From positions 28,272,001 to 28,336,000 of the forward strand of contig JANJGN010000026.1 of assembly GCA_026770705.1 (NCBI GenBank): a DNA stretch of 64,000 bases. The letters run 5' to 3'. Under the pieces are notes generated by a model, which saw only the letters and a program-made list of their open reading frames with translations, was not told where the DNA came from and searched no databases. Shown in pieces: positions 26,455 through 64,000 of the stretch (within the stretch, counting starts at the first letter, position 1; each line of letters opens with the position of its first letter). The stretch is from Isurus oxyrinchus (lineage: Eukaryota). Made by a program: the position numbers and the translations under genes.

Positions 26455-27243
26455 ATGGAACCAAAAAGCACCATTCACCCTGGGGAAAAACCATGGAAAT
26501 GTGGGGACTATGAGAATGGATTCAATTACCCATCGGAGCTGGAAATTCACCAGCAAATTCACACTGAGGAGAGGCCATTCACCTGCTCTGAGTGTGGGAA
26601 GGGATTCACAAAGTCAAACTACCTGCTAAAACACCAGCGAGTTCATACTGGGAAGAGGCCGTTCACCTGCTCCGAGTGTGGAAAGGGGTTCATTAATTCA
26701 TCTGACCTGCTGACACACCGAAGAGTTCACACTGGGGAGAGGCCATTCATCTGCCCCAAGTGTGGGAAGGGATTCGCTCAGTCATCCACTCTGCTTATAC
26801 ACCAGCGAGGTCACACTGGGGAGAGACCGTTCACCTGCTCTGTGTGTGGGAAGGGATTTACTTGTTCATCAAACCTGATGAGACACCAGCAAATTCACAC
26901 CGACAAGAAACCTTTTAAATGCACAGACTGTCAGAAGTGCTATAAAAGTATTGAGGAACTGATGTCCCATCAACGTTTTCACACTGACGAGAGACCATTC
27001 AGGTGCTCTCACTGTGGGGCTGGGTTCAGGCGATCATGTGAACTCACTGTACACCAGCGAATTCACACTGGGGAGAGACCGTTCCTGTGCTCCGAGTGTG
27101 GGAAGGGATTCACTCAGTCGTCCAACCTGCTGAGGCACCAGCGAGTTCACACTGATGAGAGACCTTTTAAATGCCCAGACTGCAGAAAGTGCTATAAAAG
27201 TTCTGGGGAACTGATGCGCCATCAACGTAGTCACACTGTGTGA
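26455..27243 (+). CDS. Tandem C2H2 zinc-finger protein (ZNF-D), 8 intact plus 1 degenerate finger; truncated by a 1-bp deletion
   Basis: ATG at 26455 in ORF 26449-27243; paralog at 49111 has cacactgatgtgaga where this has cacactgtgtgaga; two more finger units follow out of frame to ~27414. Confidence 0.75.
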
Positions 27244-33866: not shown

Positions 33867-34820
33867 TCACATGTGAACTCGCTGGTGTTTCAGTAGGGTG
33901 GACGACACAGTGAATCCCTTCCCACAAACAGAACAGGTGAACGGCCTCTTCCCAGTGTGAACTCGCTGGTGTGTCAGCAGGTGGGATGTACGAGTGAATT
34001 TCTTCCCACACTCAGTGCAGGTGAACGGCCTCTCCCCGGTGTGAACTCGTTGGTGGGTCAGCAGGTGGGATGACCGAGTGAATCCCTTCCCACACTCAGA
34101 ACAGGTGAACGGCCTCTCCCCAGTGTGAATTCGCTGGTGGACAATGAGTTGAGACGATTGCCTGAACCCAGTTCCACAGTGAGAGCACCTGAATGGTCTC
34201 TCCTCAGTATGAACACGTTGATGTCGCATCAGTTCCCCAGAACTTTTATAGCACTTTCCACAGTCTGGACATTGAAAAGGTCTCTCGTCAGTGTGAACAC
34301 GTTGGTGAGGTATAAGTTCCCTGGAACTTTTAAAGCACTTCCCACAGTCTGGACATTTAAAAGGTCTCTCCTCAGTGTGAACACGTTGATGGGACATCAG
34401 TTCCCTGGAACTTTTATAGCACTTTCCACAGTGCAGACATTTAAAAGGTCTCTCGTCAGTGTGAACTCGCTGGTGTGTCACCAGAATGGATAACTGAGTG
34501 AATCCCTTTCCACACTCAGAGCAGGCGAATGGCCTCTCCCCAGTGTGAGCTCGATGGTGTCTCAGCAGAATTGATGACTGAGTGAATCCCTTCCCGCACA
34601 GCGAGCAGTTGAACGGTCTCTCCCCGGTGTGACTGTGTCGATGAATTTTCAGCTTTGACAGATTATTGAATTCCTTCCCACAGTCCCCACATTTCCAAAT
34701 TGTCTGTCCGGTGTGATTGCATTTATGGTTTGTGAGCCCAGATGATTGGCTGAAGGCTAGTCCACACACAGAACATGTGTACGGTTTGTCCCCACTGTGA
34801 ACGGTGCTTTTTCCTTCCAT
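33867..34820 (-). CDS. Intact 11-finger C2H2 zinc-finger protein (ZNF-G), no KRAB/SCAN/BTB domain
   Basis: ATG at 34820; 11 complete CxxC-HxxxH fingers; acceptor at ~34931; CpG promoter at 37140-37560. Confidence 0.85.
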
Positions 34821-46115: not shown

Positions 46116-48248
46116 AAAAAAAAAACAAAAAAAAACAAAAAAAAACAAAAAAACAAAAAAAAAACAAAAAAAAACAAAAAAAAAACTGCGGATGCTGGAA
46201 ATCCAAAACAAAAACAGAATTACCTGGAAAAACTCAGCAGGTCTGGCAGCATCGGCGGAGAAGAAAAGAGTTGACGTTTCGAGTCCTCATGACCCTTCGA
46301 CAGAACTTGATTTCGAGTCCAAGAAAGAGTTGAAATATAAGCTGGTTTAAGGTGTGTGTGTGGGGGGCAGAGAGATAGAGAGAGAGAGAGGTGGTTGTGT
46401 AGACAAACAAGCAATGATAGAAGCAGATCATCAAAAGATGTCAGCGACAATGGTACAAAAGAACACATGGGTGTTAAAGTTAAAGTTGGTGATATTATCT
46501 AAACGAATGTGCTAATTAAGAATGGATGGTAGGGCACTCAAGGTACAGCTCTAGTGGGGGTGGGGGGAGCATAAAAGATTTTAAAATATTTAAAAATAAT
46601 GGAAATAGGTGGGAAAAGAAAAATCTATATAATTTATAGGGGAAAAAAAAGGAAAAAGGGGGAAACAGAAAGGGGGTGGGGATGGGGGAGGGAGCTCACG
46701 ACCTAAAGTTGTTGAATTCAGTATTCAGACCGGAAGGCTGTAAGGTGCCTAGTCGGAAGGTGAGGTGTTGTTCCTCCAGTTTGCGTTGGGCTTCACTGGA
46801 ACAATGCAGCAAGCCAAGGACAGACATGTGGGCAAGAGAGCAGGGTGGAGTGTTAAAATGGCAAGCGACAGGGAGGTTTGGGTCATTCTTGCGGACAGAC
46901 CGCAGGTGTCCTGTTTACGTTTGGTCTCTCCAATGTAGAGAAGACCACATTGGGAGCAACGAATGCAGTAGACTAAGTTGGGGGAAATGCAAGTGAAATG
47001 CTGCTTCACTTGAAAGGAATGTTTGGGCCCTTGGACGGTGAGGAGAGAGGAAGTGAAGGGGCAGGTGTTACATCTTTTGCGTGGGCATGGGGTGGTGCTA
47101 TAGGAGGGGGTTGAGGAGTAGGGGGTGATGGAGGAGTGGACCAGGGTGTCCCGGAGGGAGCAATCCCTACGGAATGCCGATAAGGGGGGTGAAGGGAAGA
47201 TGTGTTTGGTGGTGGCATCATGCTGGAGTTGGCGGAAATGGCGGAGGATGATCCTTTGAATGCGGAGGCTGGTGGGGTGATAAGTGAGGACAAGGGGGAC
47301 CCTATCATGTTTCTGGGAGGGAGGAGAAGGCATGAGGGCGGATGCGCGGGAGATGGGCTGGACACGGTTGAGGGCCCTGTCAACGACCGTGGGTGGAAAA
47401 CCTCGGTTAAGGAAGAAGGAGGACATGTCAGAGGAACCGTTTTTGAAGGTAGCATCATCGGAACAGATGCGACGAAGGCGAAGGAACTGGGAGAATGGGA
47501 TGGAGTCCTTACAGGAAGCGGGGTGTGAGGAGATGTAGTCGAGGTAGCTGTGGGAGTCGGTGGGTTTGTAATGGATATTGGTGGACAGTCTATCACCAGA
47601 GATTGAGACAGAGAGGTCAAGGAAGGGAAGGGAAGTGTCAGAGATGGACCACGTGAAAATGATGGAAGGGTGGAGATTGGAAGCAAAATTAATAAATTTT
47701 TCCAAGTCCCAACGAGAGCATGAAGCGGCACCGAAGTAATCATCGATGTACCGGAGAAAAAGTTGTGGAAGGGGGCCGGGGTAGGACTGCAACAAGGAAT
47801 GTTCCACATACCCCATAAAGAGACCGGCATAGCTGGGGCCCATGCGGGTACCCATAGCTATACCTTTTATTTGGAGGAAGTGAGAGGATTTTAAGAAAAA
47901 ATTGTACAGTGAGAGAACAAGTTCAGCCAGATGGCAGAGAGTAGTGGTGAATGGGGATTGTTCAGGCCTCTGTTCGAGGAAGAAGCTAAGGGCCCTCAGA
48001 CCATCCTGGTGGGGGATGGAGGTGTAGAGGGATTGGACGTCCATGGTGAAGAGGAAGCGGTTGGGGCCAGGGAACTGGAAATTGTTGATGTGACGTAAGG
48101 TGTCAGAGGAATCACGGATGTAGGTGGGAAGGGACTGGACAAGGGGAGAGAGAAGGGAGTCAGGATAATGAGAAATGAGTTCTGTGGGGCAGGAGCAAAC
48201 TGAGACGATCGGTCTACCGGGGCAGTTCTGTTTGTGTTCTGTTTCTGT
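46116..48248 (-). mobile_element. Penelope-like element (Neptune type), 5'-truncated: RT, GIY-YIG, terminal hammerhead (46269-46307)
   Basis: MDVQSLYT, GIAMGTRMG, YIDD; CPRKRCNTC linker; NLVYCIRCSQCGLLYIGET; frameshifting deletion near 46910; exact 12-bp TSD ttccaaaatgat at 46104 and 48249. Confidence 0.93.
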
Positions 48249-55620: not shown

Positions 55621-56918
55621 ACAAAAACAGAATTACCTGGAAAAACTCAGCAGGTCTGGCAGCATCGGCGGAGAAGAAAAGAGTTGACGTTTCGAGTCCT
55701 CATGACCCTTCGACAGAACTTGAGTTCGAGTCCAAGAAAGAGTTGAAATATAAGAGAGAGAGAGAGAAGTGGAGGGGGTTGGTGTGGTTGTAGGGACAAA
55801 CAAGCAGTGATAGAAGCAGATCATCAATAGATGTCAAAAACAACAGAACAAAAGAACACGTAGGTGTTAAATTGGTGATATTATCTAAACGAAAGTGCTA
55901 ATTAAGAATGGATGGTAGGGCACTCAAGGTATCGCTCTAGTGGGGGTGGGGAGAGCATAAAAGATTTAAAAATATTTAAAAATAATGGAAATAGGTGGGA
56001 AAAGAAAAATCTATATAATTTATTGGAAAAAAACAAAAGGAAGGGGGAAACAGAAAGGGGTGGGGATGGAAGAGGGAGCTCAAGACCTAAAGTTGTTGAA
56101 TTCAATATTCAGACCGGAAGGCAGTAAAGTGCCTAGTCGGAAGATGAGGTGTTGTTCTTCCAGTTTGTGTTGGGCTTCACTGGAACAATGCAGCAAGCCA
56201 AGGACAGACATTTGGGCAAGAGAGCAGGGTGGAGTGTTAAAATGGCAAGCAACAGGGAGGTTTGGGTCATTCTTGCAGACAGACCGCAGGTGTTCTGCAA
56301 AGCGGTCGCCCAGTTTACGTTTGGTCTCTCCAATGTAGAGGAGACCACATTGGGAGCAGCGAATGCAGTAGACTAAGTTGGGGGAAATGCAAGTGAAATG
56401 CTGCTTCACTTGAAAGGAGTGTTTGGGCCCTTGGACGGTGAGGAGAGAGGAAGTGAAGGGGCAGGTGTTGCATCTTTTGCGTGGGCATGGGGTGGCACTA
56501 TAGGAGGGGGTTGAGGAGTAGGGGGTGATGGAGGAGTGGACCAGGGTGTCCCAGAGGGAGCGATCCCTACAGAATGCCGATAGGCGGGGTGAAGGGAAGA
56601 TGTGTTTGGTGGTGGCGTCATGCTGGAGTTGGCGGAAATGGCGGAGGATGATCCTTTGAATGCGGAGGCTGGTGGGGTGATAAGTGAGGACAAGGGGGAC
56701 CCTATCATGTTTCTGGGAGGGAGGAGAAGGCGTGAGGGCGGATGCACTGGAGATGGGCCGGACACGGTTGAGGGGCCTGTCAACGACCGTGGGTGGAAAA
56801 CCTCGGTTAAGGAAGAAGGAGGACATGTCAGAGGAACTGTTTTTAAAGGTAGCATCATCGGAACAGATGCGACAGAGGTGAAGGAACTGAGAGAATGGGA
56901 TGGAGTCCTTACAGGAAG
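55621..56918 (-). mobile_element. Penelope-like element (Neptune type) 3' part with GIY-YIG and hammerhead (55682-55720)
   Basis: ORF 56080-56826 YIGETKRKLGDRFAEH...GLN; close to the 46-48 kb copy; no TSD seen. Confidence 0.92.
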
Positions 56919-57063
56919 CAACAATTCAAGGTCTGACTTAAGGAAATAACTAGGCAGACTACAAATGTCACTATTAGAATAATGAGAGTCCCTGGATTCA
57001 AGCCAAAACTTTCCAACAAGCACCAAGACATACCTCCCTGTCAGATCCTTCCTACACGCCAGG

Positions 57064-57095
57064 ACTTACCTGGCAGGGGAGAGACCTTGATCACG
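57064..57095 (+). ncRNA. RNU1: U1 snRNA 5' fragment (nt 3-34)
   Basis: ACTTACCTGGCAGGGGAGAGACCTTGATCACG; 30/32 match to vertebrate U1 as remembered, including the 5'-splice-site-pairing ACUUACCUG. Confidence 0.9.
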
Positions 57096-57122
57096 TTTCA
57101 GCCAGGGAAAGGTCATCAAGCA

Positions 57123-58660
57123 ATGGCTGTAACCAGTCGAACTCCTTACAATGGGGTACCTAACAACATCTGAGTCATGGTGAAGGGCAGCGAGGAAGGA
57201 ACAGTTATGGATGGGACTTTCTTGACCAAGAGGATCCTATTCAAGCTGTGTGGTTTTGAGGCTGTGGAGATCTACTGCCTACAGGACTTCCCCAGTGCTG
57301 GATTTTTTGATGTGACGTTCAAGCAAGTGGCAGCTTGCATCAAACTCCCGAAGGTGTTTGAGGAGACAAAGACCTGCCAGAAATGAAGATCCTGACGGCG
57401 GAGCCGGTCTTTGCTCTGCTATTGCAACGAGACCGGGTTGCAATGGTGCATCTGTACAACCCCTACATCCCTGTCGCTGACGTGCTCACCTTCCTTACCA
57501 GGTACTTTGATAAGGTTGGGAGCTGCACCGCGGTTAGAGATGATTTGGAGATCTGGACATGTAAACGCCAGGTTAAGGTCATGCTCAAGACCGACGATAA
57601 GGGAGCCATCTTCCACCCCCCTTCCAGATTCGCTACTGGGGGAAGTCGTGGCTACCTTGTCTATGCTGGGCAACCCAAATTTTGTCGCTCATGCGGCAAG
57701 TCTGGTCATGTGGCGGCCAACTGCAGTGCTGTCCTCTGCAAGAACTGCAAACAGGAAGGGCACCAGACAAAAGACTGTAAACAGGCTAAGTGCTGCAATC
57801 TGTGTGGCGAGGCAAGTCACCTCTACAAGACCTGCCCCAAATGTTGCCGTACTTATGCACAGGCAGCTAAAGGCAACGAGGGGGAAGCAGAAGAAATGCC
57901 TCATGTCACTCCAACCACCAAGGCCCCCAGGGAGAACAACGGGACAAAGGAGGACACAGAGAGAGATAAAGTGGAGGAAAAGATTGGCGCAACACACAGC
58001 CAATCAACAGCACTGCCCCCTGAACCTCCCACTCCTCAGGAGAGCGAATCTACGGAGGAGGAGGAGGCAGCAGTGGGAAAACAGCAGGGGGAATGGCAGC
58101 TGGTGAAGAGAGCCAAAAGGAAAAAGGGGCTAAGAAGAAACCAAGCCACTTCCCAGACAAGAGGCAAGAGGCGTCTCCTATCCGACACGGATAACAAGTG
58201 CAACAGCTCTTCAGACGAAGAAGGGCCAGGGCGGCGCCGACAGAAGAAGCGGCAAAATTCTAGGGAGTTGAAGGACGAGACACCCAAGCTCCAGAACATT
58301 GGAGACAATGAGGAGACCAGCGCACCCCAACTGTGCCCACAACCCGAAGAGGCCAGTGCACCACAGCCCCAGGAATCTGGGAGCAGTGAGGCGCTCAGCG
58401 CACCCCAGCTCCGGGAAGCCGGGAGCAGCAACGCCCCAGAGGGGGAGAGGATTGGAGAAGCTTCTCCAACAGAGGACATTTCAAACCCCACTCTCTGCAC
58501 GGACCCCCAGATGCCACCCGAGCAGAATATCGCCAATGGGGAGGTTCAGGACGGTTTCCTCAGCCCATCCAAAGTGAAGCAATTTGAGCACACTACGGGC
58601 ATGAAGGAGCAGACCAAAGGTCTGGAACTCTCAGAGACAACAGGTTTGGTAAGAGACTAA
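57123..58660 (+). pseudogene. Tx1 ORF1, ZCCHC3-like RRM-type region plus three CCHC knuckles and an acidic/basic tail
   Basis: FFDVTF, EIWT, RGYLVYAGQPKFCRSCGKSGHVAANC-CKNCKQEGHQTKDC-CNLCGEASHLYKTC; stop at 57171, frameshift near 57383. Confidence 0.88.
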
Positions 58661-58670
58661 ATGCTTTAAA

Positions 58671-61600
58671 ATGGCTTTAAAGATTGTATCCATAAATAAG
58701 CGTAGCATTAAATCTACTACGCGATGTGTTGCGACCTTGGACTACCTTGCCAAGGTCAAAGTTGACCTGTTGTTTCTGCAGGAGTGTGCGATACCACACC
58801 TCAGCTCCTACAGGCAATGGTCACGATGGTGGTCCCATGGGCCATCGATCTGGTCGGGAGGAAACGACTCTCGTTCCTCCGGCCTGGGGATTCTGCTGCG
58901 GGGAGGCAGCTTCACTGTCTCCCAGGTTAAGGAGGTGGTGGGCGGGTGCCTCCTCGTAGCAGACGTAATGTAAAAGAATGTTCTACTCGGTTAATTAATG
59001 TGTACGCCCCGTCACAAGGGGCTGAGCGGCTGGAGGTTTTTCAGCAGCTCCCACTGCTGCTGGCAACCTCCAGGCTGGTCATTCTGGGCAGTGACTTCAA
59101 CTGCATCATCGATGCAGCTGGACGATCAGGCAGGGCCGAAAGCAGATTGGACGCTACGTCCAGATCCCTGATGGAAACAGTAAAGGATGCCAAGCTGCAC
59201 GACGTCTTCAGCAACTCTGCAGACAGTGCGCAGCATAGATACGCCTGGTCGTGGCCTGACGGGTCCGTCTGTTCCAGGATAGATTTCCTGTTTGTGTCCC
59301 GTACATTATCAGTCAGATCCACCGACATCAAGCCGGTGTTCTTCTCTGACCACTGCCTCCTACTGGCTGACTGTCACTTAGAGGAAGACCAGAGGGTGGG
59401 TAGGGAGGCATGGAAGCTAAACGTGCAACTGCTGACCCCAGAGAACATTGAGGAGCTCAAGAGGGATTTCAAAGGTGGGAGAACCATGAAACCCGACTTT
59501 GAGTCACTGACACACTGGTGGGAAGTGATCAAGGGAAACATCAAGAGGTTTTTCATCCTCAAAGGCGCCCAGAAAGCTAGAAAGGAACAGAGGGAAATGT
59601 CCCGACTCCAGAAAAACATGCAGAATCTGCACCGGCTGCAGTCGATGGGGGTCGATGTCAAGGAGGAACTCCAAGAGGCGAAGAGCCAGCAAGCCTCGCT
59701 CTTTGCCTCAGAGGCCTCCAAGATCATCCTCCTTTCCAGAGTCTGCTCCGTGGAGCAGGATGAGACGTGCTCACGTTTCTTCTTCCAAAAGGTACACAGA
59801 GAGAGCTCTGTGATCAGCAGCCTGAAGGAAGAAGACGGCTCAGTAAAGTCATCACAGTCCGACATTTTGAGGATCAGCAAATCCTTTTATGCCGGATTGT
59901 ATGACATGAAGCCCACAGACATCCCCCAAGTCCTTCCTGTCCTCTATCACGGAGGTCTTAGACGACAGTACACGGGAGAGCCTGGACAAACCGCTAACTC
60001 CTGACGAACTGACTGAGGCCCTTGAGTCCTTTGAGAAGAGTAAAACTCCCGGAAGCGACAGCTTGCCGGCGGAGTTGTATTCGGCTCTGTGGGACAGGAT
60101 CGGCCCAGACCTGCTAGAAGTGTACAAGAGTATGCTCCTGGCTGGCAGTATGTCAGAATCCATGAGGAAAGGCATTATCACCCTCATCTACAAGCACAAG
60201 GGGGAAAGGGAGGAAATTAGAAATTGGCAACCCATTTCACTGTTGAATGTGGACTATAAGATTCTGTCCAAGGTCATCGCCAATCGGGTCAAATCCGCTC
60301 TGGAATTGGTGATCCACCCTGACCAGACCTGCACTGTGCCAGGCAGGAAGATCTCTGACAACCTCGCACTGCTCAGGGATACGATTGCCTATGTACAGGA
60401 CAGGGGGGTGGACACCTGCCTCATCAGCCTGGATCAGGAGAAGGCCTTTGACAGAATATCGCACACCTACATGGTGGATGTGCTCTCCAAAATGGGGTTT
60501 GGGGAGGGAATTCGCAATTGGATCCAACTGGTCTACACTAACATCAGTAGTGCAGTCTCAATCAATGGGTGGGAATCAGATAGCTTTCCGATTAAATCTG
60601 GAGTCAGGCAGGGCTGCCCTCTCTCACCTGTTCTTTTTGTGTGTTGCATAGAACACTTTGCTGAGTCCATCAGGAAGGATCCGGGCATAAGACGAGTGAT
60701 GATCCCAGGCAGTGGAGGCACTCAGATCAAAGTCTCCCTGTACATGGACGATGTCGCTGTCTTCTGCTCGGATCCCCTGTCGGTGCACAGACTGATCCAC
60801 ATCTGTGACCAGTTTGAACTGGCCTCAGGAGCCAAGGTAAATCGTGGGAAGAGTGAGGCTATGTTCTTTGGGAACTGGGCTGACCGATCCTTTGTCCCCT
60901 TCACTGTCAGGGCTGACGGGTGAACGTGCTGGGGATATGGTTCGGAGGGACCAGGGCACACGTTAGAAACTGGAAGGAGCGAGTGTCTATGGTGAAAAGG
61001 AAACTGGGCATGTGGGAGCGACGCTCCCTCTCCATTGCGGGTAAGAACCTGGTCATCAGGTGTGAGGTACTCTCGCTGTTGCTGTATGTGGCGCAGGTCT
61101 GGCCCATTCCACACTCCTGTGTGGTGGCGATCACCCGAGCCATCTTCCACTTTATCTGGAGGTCGAAAATGGATCGCGTCCACAGGGACATGATGTACAA
61201 GCCTCTAGATAAAAGGGGAGAAAACGTGCCCAACATCACCCTCATACTGATGGCCACATTTGTGTGTGGCTGCATCAAGCGGTGCTTAGACCCTCAGTAT
61301 GCAAACACCAAGTGTCACTACATGCTGAGGTTCTACCTGTCCCCAGTGTTGCGAAGGATGGGTCTGGCCACACTGCCGCGGAACGCTCCAAGTAGTTGGA
61401 CCGTGCCGTACCACCTGACCCTCATGGGAAAATTTATGCAGAGAAACACCTTTGACCACAAGTCCATCAGGCAGTGGTCAGCACGTAACGTCTGAAAGGC
61501 CCTGAGGGAAAAGGAGAGGGTGGACCCGGTGGGATGGTTCCCCAAGCAGACTGACAAAGTCATTTGGCAGAATGCCTCATCGCCAGAACTTTCCAACAAG

Positions 61601-62069
61601 CACCAAGACGTAGCTTGGCTGGTGGTGAGAAAGGCCCTCCCCGTCAGATCCTTCCTACATGCCAGGAGTCTCACCCCCGCGGCACGTTGCCCTCGAGGTG
61701 GCTGTGGTGGAGATGAGACCGTTGTTCACCTCCTTGTAGATTGTGCCTTTGCAAAGAAGGTCTGGAGAGAGATGCAGTGGTTTCTGTCAAGGTTCGTCCC
61801 GAGCAGTTCTGTGACACAGGACTCTGATCTACGGGCTGTTCCTAGGGACACACACCGAGACAAACATCAACTGCAGCTGGAAGATCATCAACTCGGTAAA
61901 AGACACTCTTTGGTCTGCCCGTAACTTGTTGGTCTTCCAGCGCAAAGAGTTGTCCCCGACCGAGTGTTGCAGACTGGCACACTCCAAGGTCCAGGACTAC
62001 GTGCTGAGGGCCACACTAAAGCTTGGGGCAGCCGCCGCAAAGGCGCAGTGGGGAAGGGTTCCTGCCTAA
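58671..62069 (+). pseudogene. Tx1 ORF2: APE endonuclease, reverse transcriptase, C-terminal zinc finger
   Basis: FLQE, NVYAP, SDFN, SRID, SDH; NWQPISLLNVDYKI, DQEKAFD, GVRQGCPLSP, YMDD; CPRGGCGGDETVVHLLVDC; several frameshifts. Confidence 0.92.
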
Positions 62070-62302
62070 GACCTTTCTGCCATAGTGCACCGAGGGGCTG
62101 GGAACTGTGAAGAACCCCTCAGGATGTACAGCTCAAAATGAATGTCTGCCAATGATTGTAATATTCATTGTTCGTACTGATACACCTTGTGATTCATGTT
62201 GTAAAAGTTGAACCTGATTGTATTTTTGTGATGGTGAATTTGAAATGGTTTGAAATGTTGTTGAAGATTTATGAATAAAGTATATTTTTACAAAAAAAAA
62301 AC

Positions 62303-62425
62303 TTCTCCCAGGACGAGGCTGTCTCATTGCACTTCGGGTCTGCTGATGCCTACGATGTCACCAAATGTGGGATACTCAACTGCAAAATTTGTGGTAGTGA
62401 TGGACTGCAATCGCACTCTCCCCTG
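62303..62425 (+). ncRNA. RNU1: U1 snRNA 3' part (nt 42-164), disrupted gene copy
   Basis: 123 nt ungapped against vertebrate U1 as remembered (about 80% by eye); U1A loop ATTGCAC 62326-62332; Sm site AATTTGTGG 62386-62394; ends CCCCTG. Confidence 0.92.
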
Positions 62426-62431
62426 ATTTAC

Positions 62432-62446
62432 AATTCAAAAAATAAA
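62432..62446 (+). terminator. Degenerate snRNA 3' box
   Basis: AATTCAAAAATAAAC resembles GTTTCAAAAGTAGAC and lies just downstream of the U1 end. Confidence 0.4.
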
Positions 62447-63699
62447 CTTTAACTTCTATTTTCAACAAGTTTCTTCATTATACCTTATCTAATACAAGCA
62501 ATATCGGCTATAAAATGCTATTTCCAAACCTAGACTCTTTGTTTTCCCTGCCGCAACTATCCAGCCCCCATTCTTTTTCTCCCTGCGATTGTCAACAGGC
62601 GATTATTCCATCTCTGCATCATTTTATCGCTGCCATTTCTTTTGTGGCCGCCAAATTCCACGCGTCATTTTTAACCCCGCATTTGCCCACTCCAATATTC
62701 TCTCTCAAATCCTCATATAATACCCAACCCATCATCAAAACAGTCCCTGCACTCCTTCCAGCACCACCCTCCACCTCTCAACCCACCCTGTATCTCTCTG
62801 GATTATGGTATAATATCAACAGTCAGCTATTCATTCATTTGCATTCACCATTTGAAACATGCAGCTGCGAACCTCACTATTTCAAACATGTACAAGCAAC
62901 CTGTCCCCATGTTCATTCTAATTACCCCCCTCCGAAATCAACAGCAGCCTCCCACCGCCCCTCCCCCCGTATAATCTCCCCCTTCAACAGCCCCGTCTGT
63001 GATTCCTACCTTCTCAAACTCCTGCCAGCCCTCTCCCCATGTGTAAAGTCTTTCCCTGCACCTTCTGCAGCTCACTTCCCCTGCTGTGGGTTTATCTCAT
63101 AAACAGGCTTTCCATTCACTTGCCATTATTTCTTCAAGACTTCAATAGCGCAAAGTGAAGAAATAAAGTGAGAAAGAAAGTTGGAGAGAGACAGAAAGAA
63201 ATCCAAACCCAGAACCTCCATAAAATGAATAGAAAATGACCTACGGGAATCCCGTTTCATGCTCAGGATGATCGCATAGCCTAAAACACACGCATTATCC
63301 CTGAATTATAACAAGACTTTAGACAGCTTCACATTAGGACTTTTCACTTTCTCTTGTGGGACTCCCATTCCTCACACACCGGAGGCTAACATGTATGTTT
63401 TAGATTGCAAGGCCGGGCTACTTTAACCCCAGGATTATCTTTTTGAAACTCCAGGACTGCAGCCCAACAGGAACTGATTAACCGGAGCCACTAAAAACCA
63501 GGGTCCCGGATAGGCAATTAAATCTCGGGGTAAGAAACAGACACAAACTCACGTGGGCCCGTGGGGCGCGGCCTTGGAGAAGGTCTCAGTCCGTCCCCTC
63601 TGGAGGAAGTTCTGGAAGAGGAAGAGTCCTTGTCCCAGTCTGGATCTTCACATTGCAGGTTTCAAAATAAAAATTCATTGAGAGTCATACAGTTACAGG

Positions 63700-64000
63700 G
63701 CACTAGGCCCTGTCTCAGTTATTACTGTATTAGATCCTGTTTTTGTTTATATTACATTAGATCTTGTCTCAATTATTACTGTAATAGATCATGTGTCTAA
63801 TGATATCTACCTATATCACACTAGGCCCTGTTCTAGATCAGCATCAAAAACTGGCCTTGTAAGTACATTTATAATACATGATACTCAGTCTACTGATTAT
63901 TGCACGGGACCTTACCCCTGTTTATAATACATTAGACCCGGTTTACTGATTACGGCACTGAACCCTGTCCTTGTTTATAATACATTAGACCTGGTTTACT
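63700..64000. repeat. Degenerate AT-rich minisatellite
   Basis: Recurrent tacattagac/atc..tgt..actgattac units; runs off the window end. Confidence 0.55.

Follow-up and report, generated by a model that had tools for sequence, protein, structure and literature searches.

The 64,000-nucleotide stretch of Isurus oxyrinchus DNA analyzed here (the window, on contig JANJGN010000026.1) contains a full-length but decayed member of a Tx1-type LINE family whose 5′ end consists of nucleotides (nt) 1-31 of U1 snRNA. Insertions of the family recur in U1 genes at nt 37-42, and indirect genomic signs indicate that the donors probably used the promoter of the host U1 gene. An extra 63 bases in front of the U1-derived head of the window copy are a one-off junction scar, an ordinary kind of accident, and are incidental.

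A decayed U1-headed LINE in a U1 gene unit

The element measures 5.2 kb with ORF1 and ORF2. Its parts and immediate surroundings are arranged in the window as follows:

56080..56919, minus strand: Penelope-like retroelement fragment, a neighbor outside the finding, which interrupts the 56920-57001 paralogue
56920..57001, plus strand: genomic 5′ flank, a member of a low-copy paralogue family and not U1 upstream DNA
57002..57064, plus strand: 63-nt 5′ extension, an ORF2 piece of the same subfamily that lacks 23 internal nt
57064..57093, plus strand: U1-derived head, U1 nt 3-32 (the family head is U1 nt 1-31), identical at 30/30 positions to host gene L063
57094..57122, plus strand: remainder of the leader
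57123..58660, plus strand: ORF1, broken, with a ZCCHC3-type RNA-binding domain and zinc knuckles
58671..62069, plus strand: ORF2 in pieces, with AP-type endonuclease and reverse transcriptase (RT); ends approximate, from sequence
61582..61667, plus strand: ORF2 segment homologous to the 63-nt extension
62274..62301, plus strand: poly(A) signal and A tail (tail at 62292-62301)
62303..62425, plus strand: remains of the target, a U1 snRNA gene (nt 42-164; Rfam U1, E 5e-10)
62426..64000, plus strand: downstream flank of a genuine U1 gene unit, with a 3′-box-like start

The features of a Tx1-type LINE are present: an AP endonuclease together with RT, a zinc-knuckle ORF1, a poly(A) tail and target-site duplications. 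The ORF2 pieces of the window copy match RVT_1 (E 4e-37), and the AP-endonuclease call joins a window fragment that falls below the cut-off (Exo_endo_phos, E 0.008) to full homologues that bear PF03372, along with PF00078 and PF13966. Homologues named ‘Transposon TX1 149 kDa protein’ stand at 42% and 49% (P0055 and P0086). ORF1 is damaged by a stop at codon 17 and one frameshift, and the copy has diverged by 3.5% from the majority of its subfamily. The poly(A) signal and A tail are common to all 30 family 3′ ends compared.

Behind the tail, the U1 remnant is 83-90% identical to 30 host U1 loci, and 62426-64000 is 92-93% identical to the flanks of the promoter-bearing U1 genes L074 and L085. 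The 3′ flank remains collinear with genuine U1 gene units for more than 11 kb beyond U1 (86-94%). A long 3′ transduction was rejected for the window copy given this collinearity and the failure to find a closing duplication, and a subfamily mosaic was unsupported, both ends belonging to the same subfamily.

The window sits in a zinc-finger gene cluster with interleaved U1 gene units, and C2H2 zinc-finger array ORFs occupy 26455-27243 and 33867-34820. It also holds two minus-strand Penelope-like fragments (RT, GIY-YIG), at 46749-48044 and 56080-56919, which are 95% alike over the 120 nt compared (copy at 47400-47519). The latter includes an ORF at 56080-56826 with a weak GIY-YIG match (E 3.8e-4, under the Pfam cut-off).

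The 5′ junction of the window copy

An earlier note on this DNA had traced the 63 nt in front of the head to the element’s own ORF2, and the alignment holds: 57002-57064 corresponds to 61582-61612 plus 61636-61667, with 59/63 positions identical, 4 mismatches and one 23-nt gap (E 2e-8 within the window). The U1 match was likewise correctly placed as starting at nt 3, in agreement with the promoter-bearing gene L063; base 57064 has a double role, being the last base of the 63-nt piece and also U1 nt 3 (a 1-nt overlap). The spacer between the head and the ORF1 ATG at 57123 is short, as had been noted, but measures 29 nt rather than 27, since the match to host U1 runs to 57093.

The piece is not an assembly artefact, a possibility the note had raised, as its junction with the head recurs in independent sequencing data. 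Contig record 20 of run X4 (organism B) aligns without gaps to 57007-57141, differing at 9 positions; it extends 58 and 77 letters to the two sides of this junction, but only 26 letters to the left of where the 23-nt gap falls. In runs X1 and X8, the contig ends ahead of 57064 are loose and dissimilar.

No U1 promoter lies directly upstream of the head, in line with what had been claimed: among 30 U1 loci, 56920-57001 gives a sole weak match (15/17, E 0.78), to a promoterless U1 copy. The segment is one of a few paralogues on this contig, and U1 sequence was found within 1.5 kb in 0/6 of those examined. The PSE-like motif near 56968, which had been offered as a relic of a target deletion, is therefore not a U1 PSE, and the segment around it is unrelated to U1 upstream DNA. 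The proposed loss of the 5′ part of the target is right in that the promoter side is gone, but a small target deletion does not describe it: the 10 kb upstream of the copy contain no match of at least 300 nt to the upstream DNA of U1-gene units. The promoter side would have been lost either in a large deletion when the copy inserted or through a subsequent recombination event with another copy of that subfamily. A similar site was entered at the corresponding position by an independent insertion, L303, which has a target-site duplication; this match of 5′ junctions, judged by eye, favors a real insertion junction in the window copy. The idea that L303 and the window copy are the same insertion was rejected, as their subfamilies differ.

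We lean towards a template jump as the source of the 63-nt piece: in the window copy, RT would have moved on to ORF2 RNA of its own subfamily in additional jumps, leaving the piece behind. The jump that the note had suggested is thus plausible, though unproven, and its “second RNA” is indistinguishable from the same RNA, because the piece comes from the element’s own subfamily. At the position of 61645 the piece agrees with its subfamily, and it departs from its likely ancestor at 3/63 sites. The sole similar case, L307, has 112 nt of ORF1 before the head, and two short head duplications were seen, one in L222 and one in L299.

A scar formed at the DNA level, whether as a repair patch, a second tiny insertion or a recombination remnant, is a real possibility, if on balance a somewhat doubtful one. 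It would accommodate the lack of a target-site duplication in both the window copy and L307, the origin of the two flanks of the window copy in different genomic units, and a 5′ junction at the site used by L303, which fits two insertions joined later. The piece nevertheless has the orientation as well as the subfamily state of the element, is joined at U1 nt 3 through the 1-nt overlap, and is about as diverged as the element itself (3/63 versus 3.5%); moreover, the RT of R2 is described as jumping between RNA templates (PMC2912911). Two further candidates at the gap were rejected: a deletion hotspot, for which a gap-selected search showed five other deletion types and an unselected sample gave 1/105, and an RNA hairpin behind the jumps (z −0.3).

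An inherited head and recurrent insertion into U1 genes

A family search with the first 336 nt returned 1060 candidates, of which 40 were scored and 30 junctions shown; in most of these 30, the copy begins at or near U1 +1 behind unrelated DNA. The U1 match is contiguous back to nt 1 in 22/43 heads found by BLAST. An exact pattern recovered 133 dispersed intact heads genome-wide (reversed-pattern control, 0), and the joint between U1 and element falls at the same base in all 133 listed heads. Most of them carry a base change at nt 28 that occurs in 0/30 host U1 loci examined. The head of L227 is identical to host U1 L063 at 31/31 positions and to the other 19 promoter-bearing U1 loci at 29-30/31. 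The leader occurs in three variants; between the two that were compared, 35 diagnostic positions of the element go with the leader. This fixed joint, together with the leader-linked sites, indicates that the head is inherited and not added at each insertion.

The earlier note had derived the head from a chimeric U1-Tx1 RNA. Its U1 origin is borne out, but not as an event specific to this locus, the head being family-wide with subfamily variants. A longer non-U1 5′ UTR, which the note had also considered, is present in none of the other full-length copies. Target-site duplications are clear in 40/80 loci fetched at length, and measure 9-20 nt in 31 with an intact start. A stop-free frame longer than 945 aa, as an intact ORF2 would give, was absent in 89 copies; from this and from the 3.5% divergence of the window copy, the donors may be long lost.

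The family inserts repeatedly into U1 genes at nt 37-42. A pattern joining the element end to U1 found 25 family 3′ ends that abut these nucleotides (control, 0): 18 run through U1 53-164, 2 do so partly, and 5 keep only U1 40-52/56. Each of these 5 short remnants is followed by a further piece, the pattern expected of a duplication between stacked insertions. The 25 junctions reduce to at most ~18 events, owing to a four-unit array, three near-identical loci and three copies of one donor. Specificity is weak, as the sampled 3′ ends that lie in U1 number 1/30, 1/40 and 0/40. Among 84 distinct 3′ flanks, one U2 match was seen, which starts at U2 nt 6 and is not Keno’s insertion 37 nt into U2; a search of the same flanks with short motifs, whose pattern missed the inner end of L220, found no histone-like motif.

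Other arrangements were observed around snRNA sequences. At L222, a U1-headed copy has entered a U2 copy right at its beginning and is preceded by a short duplicated head. Large segmental repeats at G000:C21:86.9-87.9 Mb (L143, L149, L152-L157) each contain an older (84-87%) Tx1 copy in U1. L215 (G000:C7:54.71-54.72 Mb) is a stack of no fewer than three element copies plus an orphan U1-flank piece, with the same short repeat between them. L077, L081 and L087 are U1 retrocopies that include the 3′-box region and have duplications around them and no A tail; they look like retroposed 3′-extended U1 precursors.

Evidence on the donor promoter

The proposal of the earlier note that the donor was transcribed from the host U1 promoter finds indirect genomic support, namely donors in U1 genes and copies that start at +1. 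Four signs bear on it: copies that took U1-gene flank along, the G before the head, the divergence behind intact U1 promoters and a sister family that starts at U2 +1. In the cycle that we envisage, an element would land in a U1 gene so that its head ends up behind the U1 promoter. Pol II would start a capped RNA at +1 and transcribe both ORFs as far as the element’s poly(A) signal, sometimes continuing through the U1 3′ half, and RT would copy this RNA back to the cap. Most new copies would fall elsewhere and, being promoterless, be dead ends, and the few in U1 genes would be new donors.

Four copies on four contigs (L122, L119, L121 and L220) consist of the element, an A tail, the U1 3′ half and U1-gene flank, which places their donors in U1 genes. 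Duplications, clear in three of the four, lie outside the U1-gene flank, with 21 nt in L122, 13 nt in L119 (by eye), a weak one in L121 and 14 nt in L220. L122 comprises the head, the element, an A tail, U1 39-164, ~260 nt of U1-gene flank and a second A tail, within its 21-nt duplication. L119 and L121 share one flank, which is 93% identical to that of L122 and 86-89% to host gene L063, and L220 carries a different type of U1-gene flank within its 14-nt duplication. This read-through reports the location of the donor only, not which promoter drove it.

The base before the head is G in 78/133 cases, against a background of 0.22 in the flanks (p 1e-19); in host U1 genes it is C. The target-site duplication ends exactly on this −1 base in 6/15 G cases versus 1/16 others (p 0.037). 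G at full-length 5′ ends has been ascribed to copying of the cap (PMC3287187), and the −1 G fits a cap-templated C pairing with a G of the target. It lies inside the duplication in 14/15 cases and is untemplated in 1/15 only, so it is shown as a microhomology and not as an untemplated base. A G at −1 owned by the element would look identical.

Copies behind an intact U1 promoter are also unusually divergent. In the first 150 nt, non-CpG divergence is 21/131 (16%) at L123, 8/32 (25%) at L120 and 13/74 (18%) at L216, compared with 1-2.4% from the family in the same 150 nt of other copies. Promoter-damaged loci gave 1/132 (0.8%) at L134, which has a 29-nt deletion, and 5/126 (4%) at L131, which has lost the proximal promoter; the contrast is one of 3 versus 2 loci. 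The excess persists when the U2-headed sister family described below is allowed as reference, although part of L120 is sister-like. The hyper-divergent region of L120, L123 and L216 spans the first 150-300 nt after the U1 promoter. Active human snRNA genes mutate ~35-50x faster than pseudogenes and intergenic DNA (PMC13484765).

Several results weigh against promoter borrowing. Most copies lie outside U1, and no intact junction between promoter and head was found, in 0/70 pattern-found heads (a check that covered 50/55 heads without a preceding G and 20/78 with one) and 0/43 BLAST-found heads. A promoter-head search found only L123 among 40 scored of 669 candidates; this locus has a promoter, a decayed head, a full element and U1 39-164, and its head is ~8 nt nearer the promoter than U1 +1 is. 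Furthermore, snRNA promoters favor Integrator-type 3′ ends over long polyadenylated RNA, which also counts against borrowing.

A sister family begins with U2 nt 1-37, followed by 9 nt and the ORF1 ATG (70 matches, dispersed). Its copies include L339-L368, L129, L130, L136 and L138, several of them among the U1/U2 genes of contig C29. The sister ORF1 is 80-84% identical to that of the U1-headed family (5 copies tested), and G precedes +1 in 6/8 intact starts (30 viewed). A U2 promoter was found before 0/33 U2-headed copies, which speaks against borrowing; it was rejected for L129 and L130 in particular, with no match to 20 U2 loci. L128-L130 (G000:C21:76.77-76.80 Mb) are tandem units of ~7.3 kb in which a U2-headed 5′ part is joined to a U1-family 3′ part, and these units end in U1 sequence.

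Alternatively, the head could be a relic of a single ancient U1 insertion that now acts, together with the ORF1 start, as a Pol II promoter; dispersed copies would then be their own donors, and U1 targeting a leftover preference of the endonuclease. The assembly search without an intact promoter-head donor, the inheritance of head variants with subfamilies and the dispersal of most copies all agree with this, and transcription of L1 is initiated by an internal element close to the 5′ end (PMC2912911). We nonetheless consider it unlikely. The leaders measure ~61, 54 and 46 nt to the ATG (U1 subfamilies and U2 sister), yet each starts at snRNA +1, so the start tracks snRNA +1 across the U1- and U2-headed families and not a fixed distance from ORF1. 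In addition, the copies with U1-gene flank derive from at least two donor flank types, and PMC4494074 states that snRNA genes have no reported internal promoter. A second alternative, in which RT switches from element RNA to the plentiful U1 snRNA at each insertion and so gives every copy a new head, is largely refuted and very improbable. Such switching is known from snRNA/L1 chimeras and the extensions of SINEU-2 (PMC4494074), short head duplications exist (L222, L299), and one run X4 contig has U1 to ~nt 54 and then the head, although a duplication within a U1 gene would account for this just as well. Yet the joint falls at one base in the 133 listed heads, with inherited variants, unlike the variable joints of chimeras, and the change at nt 28 that most of them carry is absent from the 30 host U1 loci examined.

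A faint likeness of the leader to U1 nt 42-62 had been remarked upon, but it does not rise above chance in an unconstrained search: shuffles scored as well against U1 nt 40-62 in 515/2000 trials for the window and 186/2000 for L228. The leader at 57094-57122 may comprise a degraded U1 nt 40-57 and the element’s own last bases, a U1 origin that is not significant. In less decayed copies, the leader is predicted to pair with the head: in L122 and L227, nt 8-18 form an 11-bp stem with nt 35-45 (z −2.6 and −2.9 versus dinucleotide shuffles), and the same fold is absent from the decayed window head (z −0.4). The predicted stem would cover part of the splice-site-pairing arm, which we put forward as a hypothesis because it relies largely on one change from U1, with no covariation support.

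Taken at its widest, the LINE lineage might be an obligate promoter parasite of spliceosomal RNA genes, with sisters launched from U1 and U2, a head refolded over the splice-site arm, donor 5′ ends that mutate fast, and survival by re-entry into fresh U1 genes. We offer this reading tentatively and hold it to be rather doubtful.

Comparison with known systems

The closest known system is Keno (Kojima and Fujiwara 2004), described in PMC4494074, PMC4640811 and PMC6136364 as a Tx1-clade AP-endonuclease LINE specific for U2 snRNA genes. A U1-targeting LINE was not found in the literature consulted, although Repbase, Kojima and Fujiwara 2004 and the supplements of PMC4494074 might contain one; the LINE list in PMC4640811 has none for U1, and the legend of figure 3 in PMC4494074 gives U2, U5, 5S and satellite targets, with U1 absent. 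The family is a U1-targeting, U1-headed relative of Keno-type elements. It adds U1 to the known LINE targets and provides a close U1/U2 pair for mapping the change of target of an AP endonuclease.

Like Keno, taken by its description, the family is a two-ORF AP-endonuclease LINE that enters a Pol II snRNA gene ~37-40 nt from its start, and a Keno-like sister headed by U2 nt 1-37 resides in the Isurus genome. It differs from Keno in targeting U1, in its weak specificity and in the snRNA 5′ piece that travels with dispersed copies as a head. Utopia (PMC4640811) also targets snRNA genes and has weak specificity in reptile families, whereas its target is U2 and its endonuclease is of the RLE type. 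The crocodilian SINEU-1/2/3 likewise have a U1/U2-derived head from the snRNA 5′ end, Tx1 machinery and recurrent 5′ extensions (PMC4494074); they are, however, short and non-coding and prefer a Mariner transposon, in contrast to a coding LINE that targets U1 genes.

The transcription of SINEU is called an open question in PMC4494074, as snRNA promoters lie outside the gene, and the same holds for U1/U2-headed retroposons at large. The present family offers genomic evidence for an answer, which is to insert behind the promoter and carry the snRNA start. The excess of mutations behind intact U1 promoters may additionally report hypermutability of snRNA genes outside mammals. Dependence on co-transcription with the target gene, as proposed here for the U1-headed donors, is described for R2, the 28S rRNA-specific LINE (PMC4494074, PMC3774820). 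R2 differs in having an RLE endonuclease and a Pol I transcript that is cut by an HDV-like ribozyme, whereas the U1-headed 5′ end looks like a capped start; no Rfam ribozyme matched at 56500-63000, and the heads fold as a simple hairpin. Lastly, SVA_F1/MAST2 is a case of a retroelement subfamily that runs on a captured host promoter and carries host 5′ sequence (PMC3287187, PMC4494074), but it arose from a single capture by splicing, with no targeting back to the donor gene.
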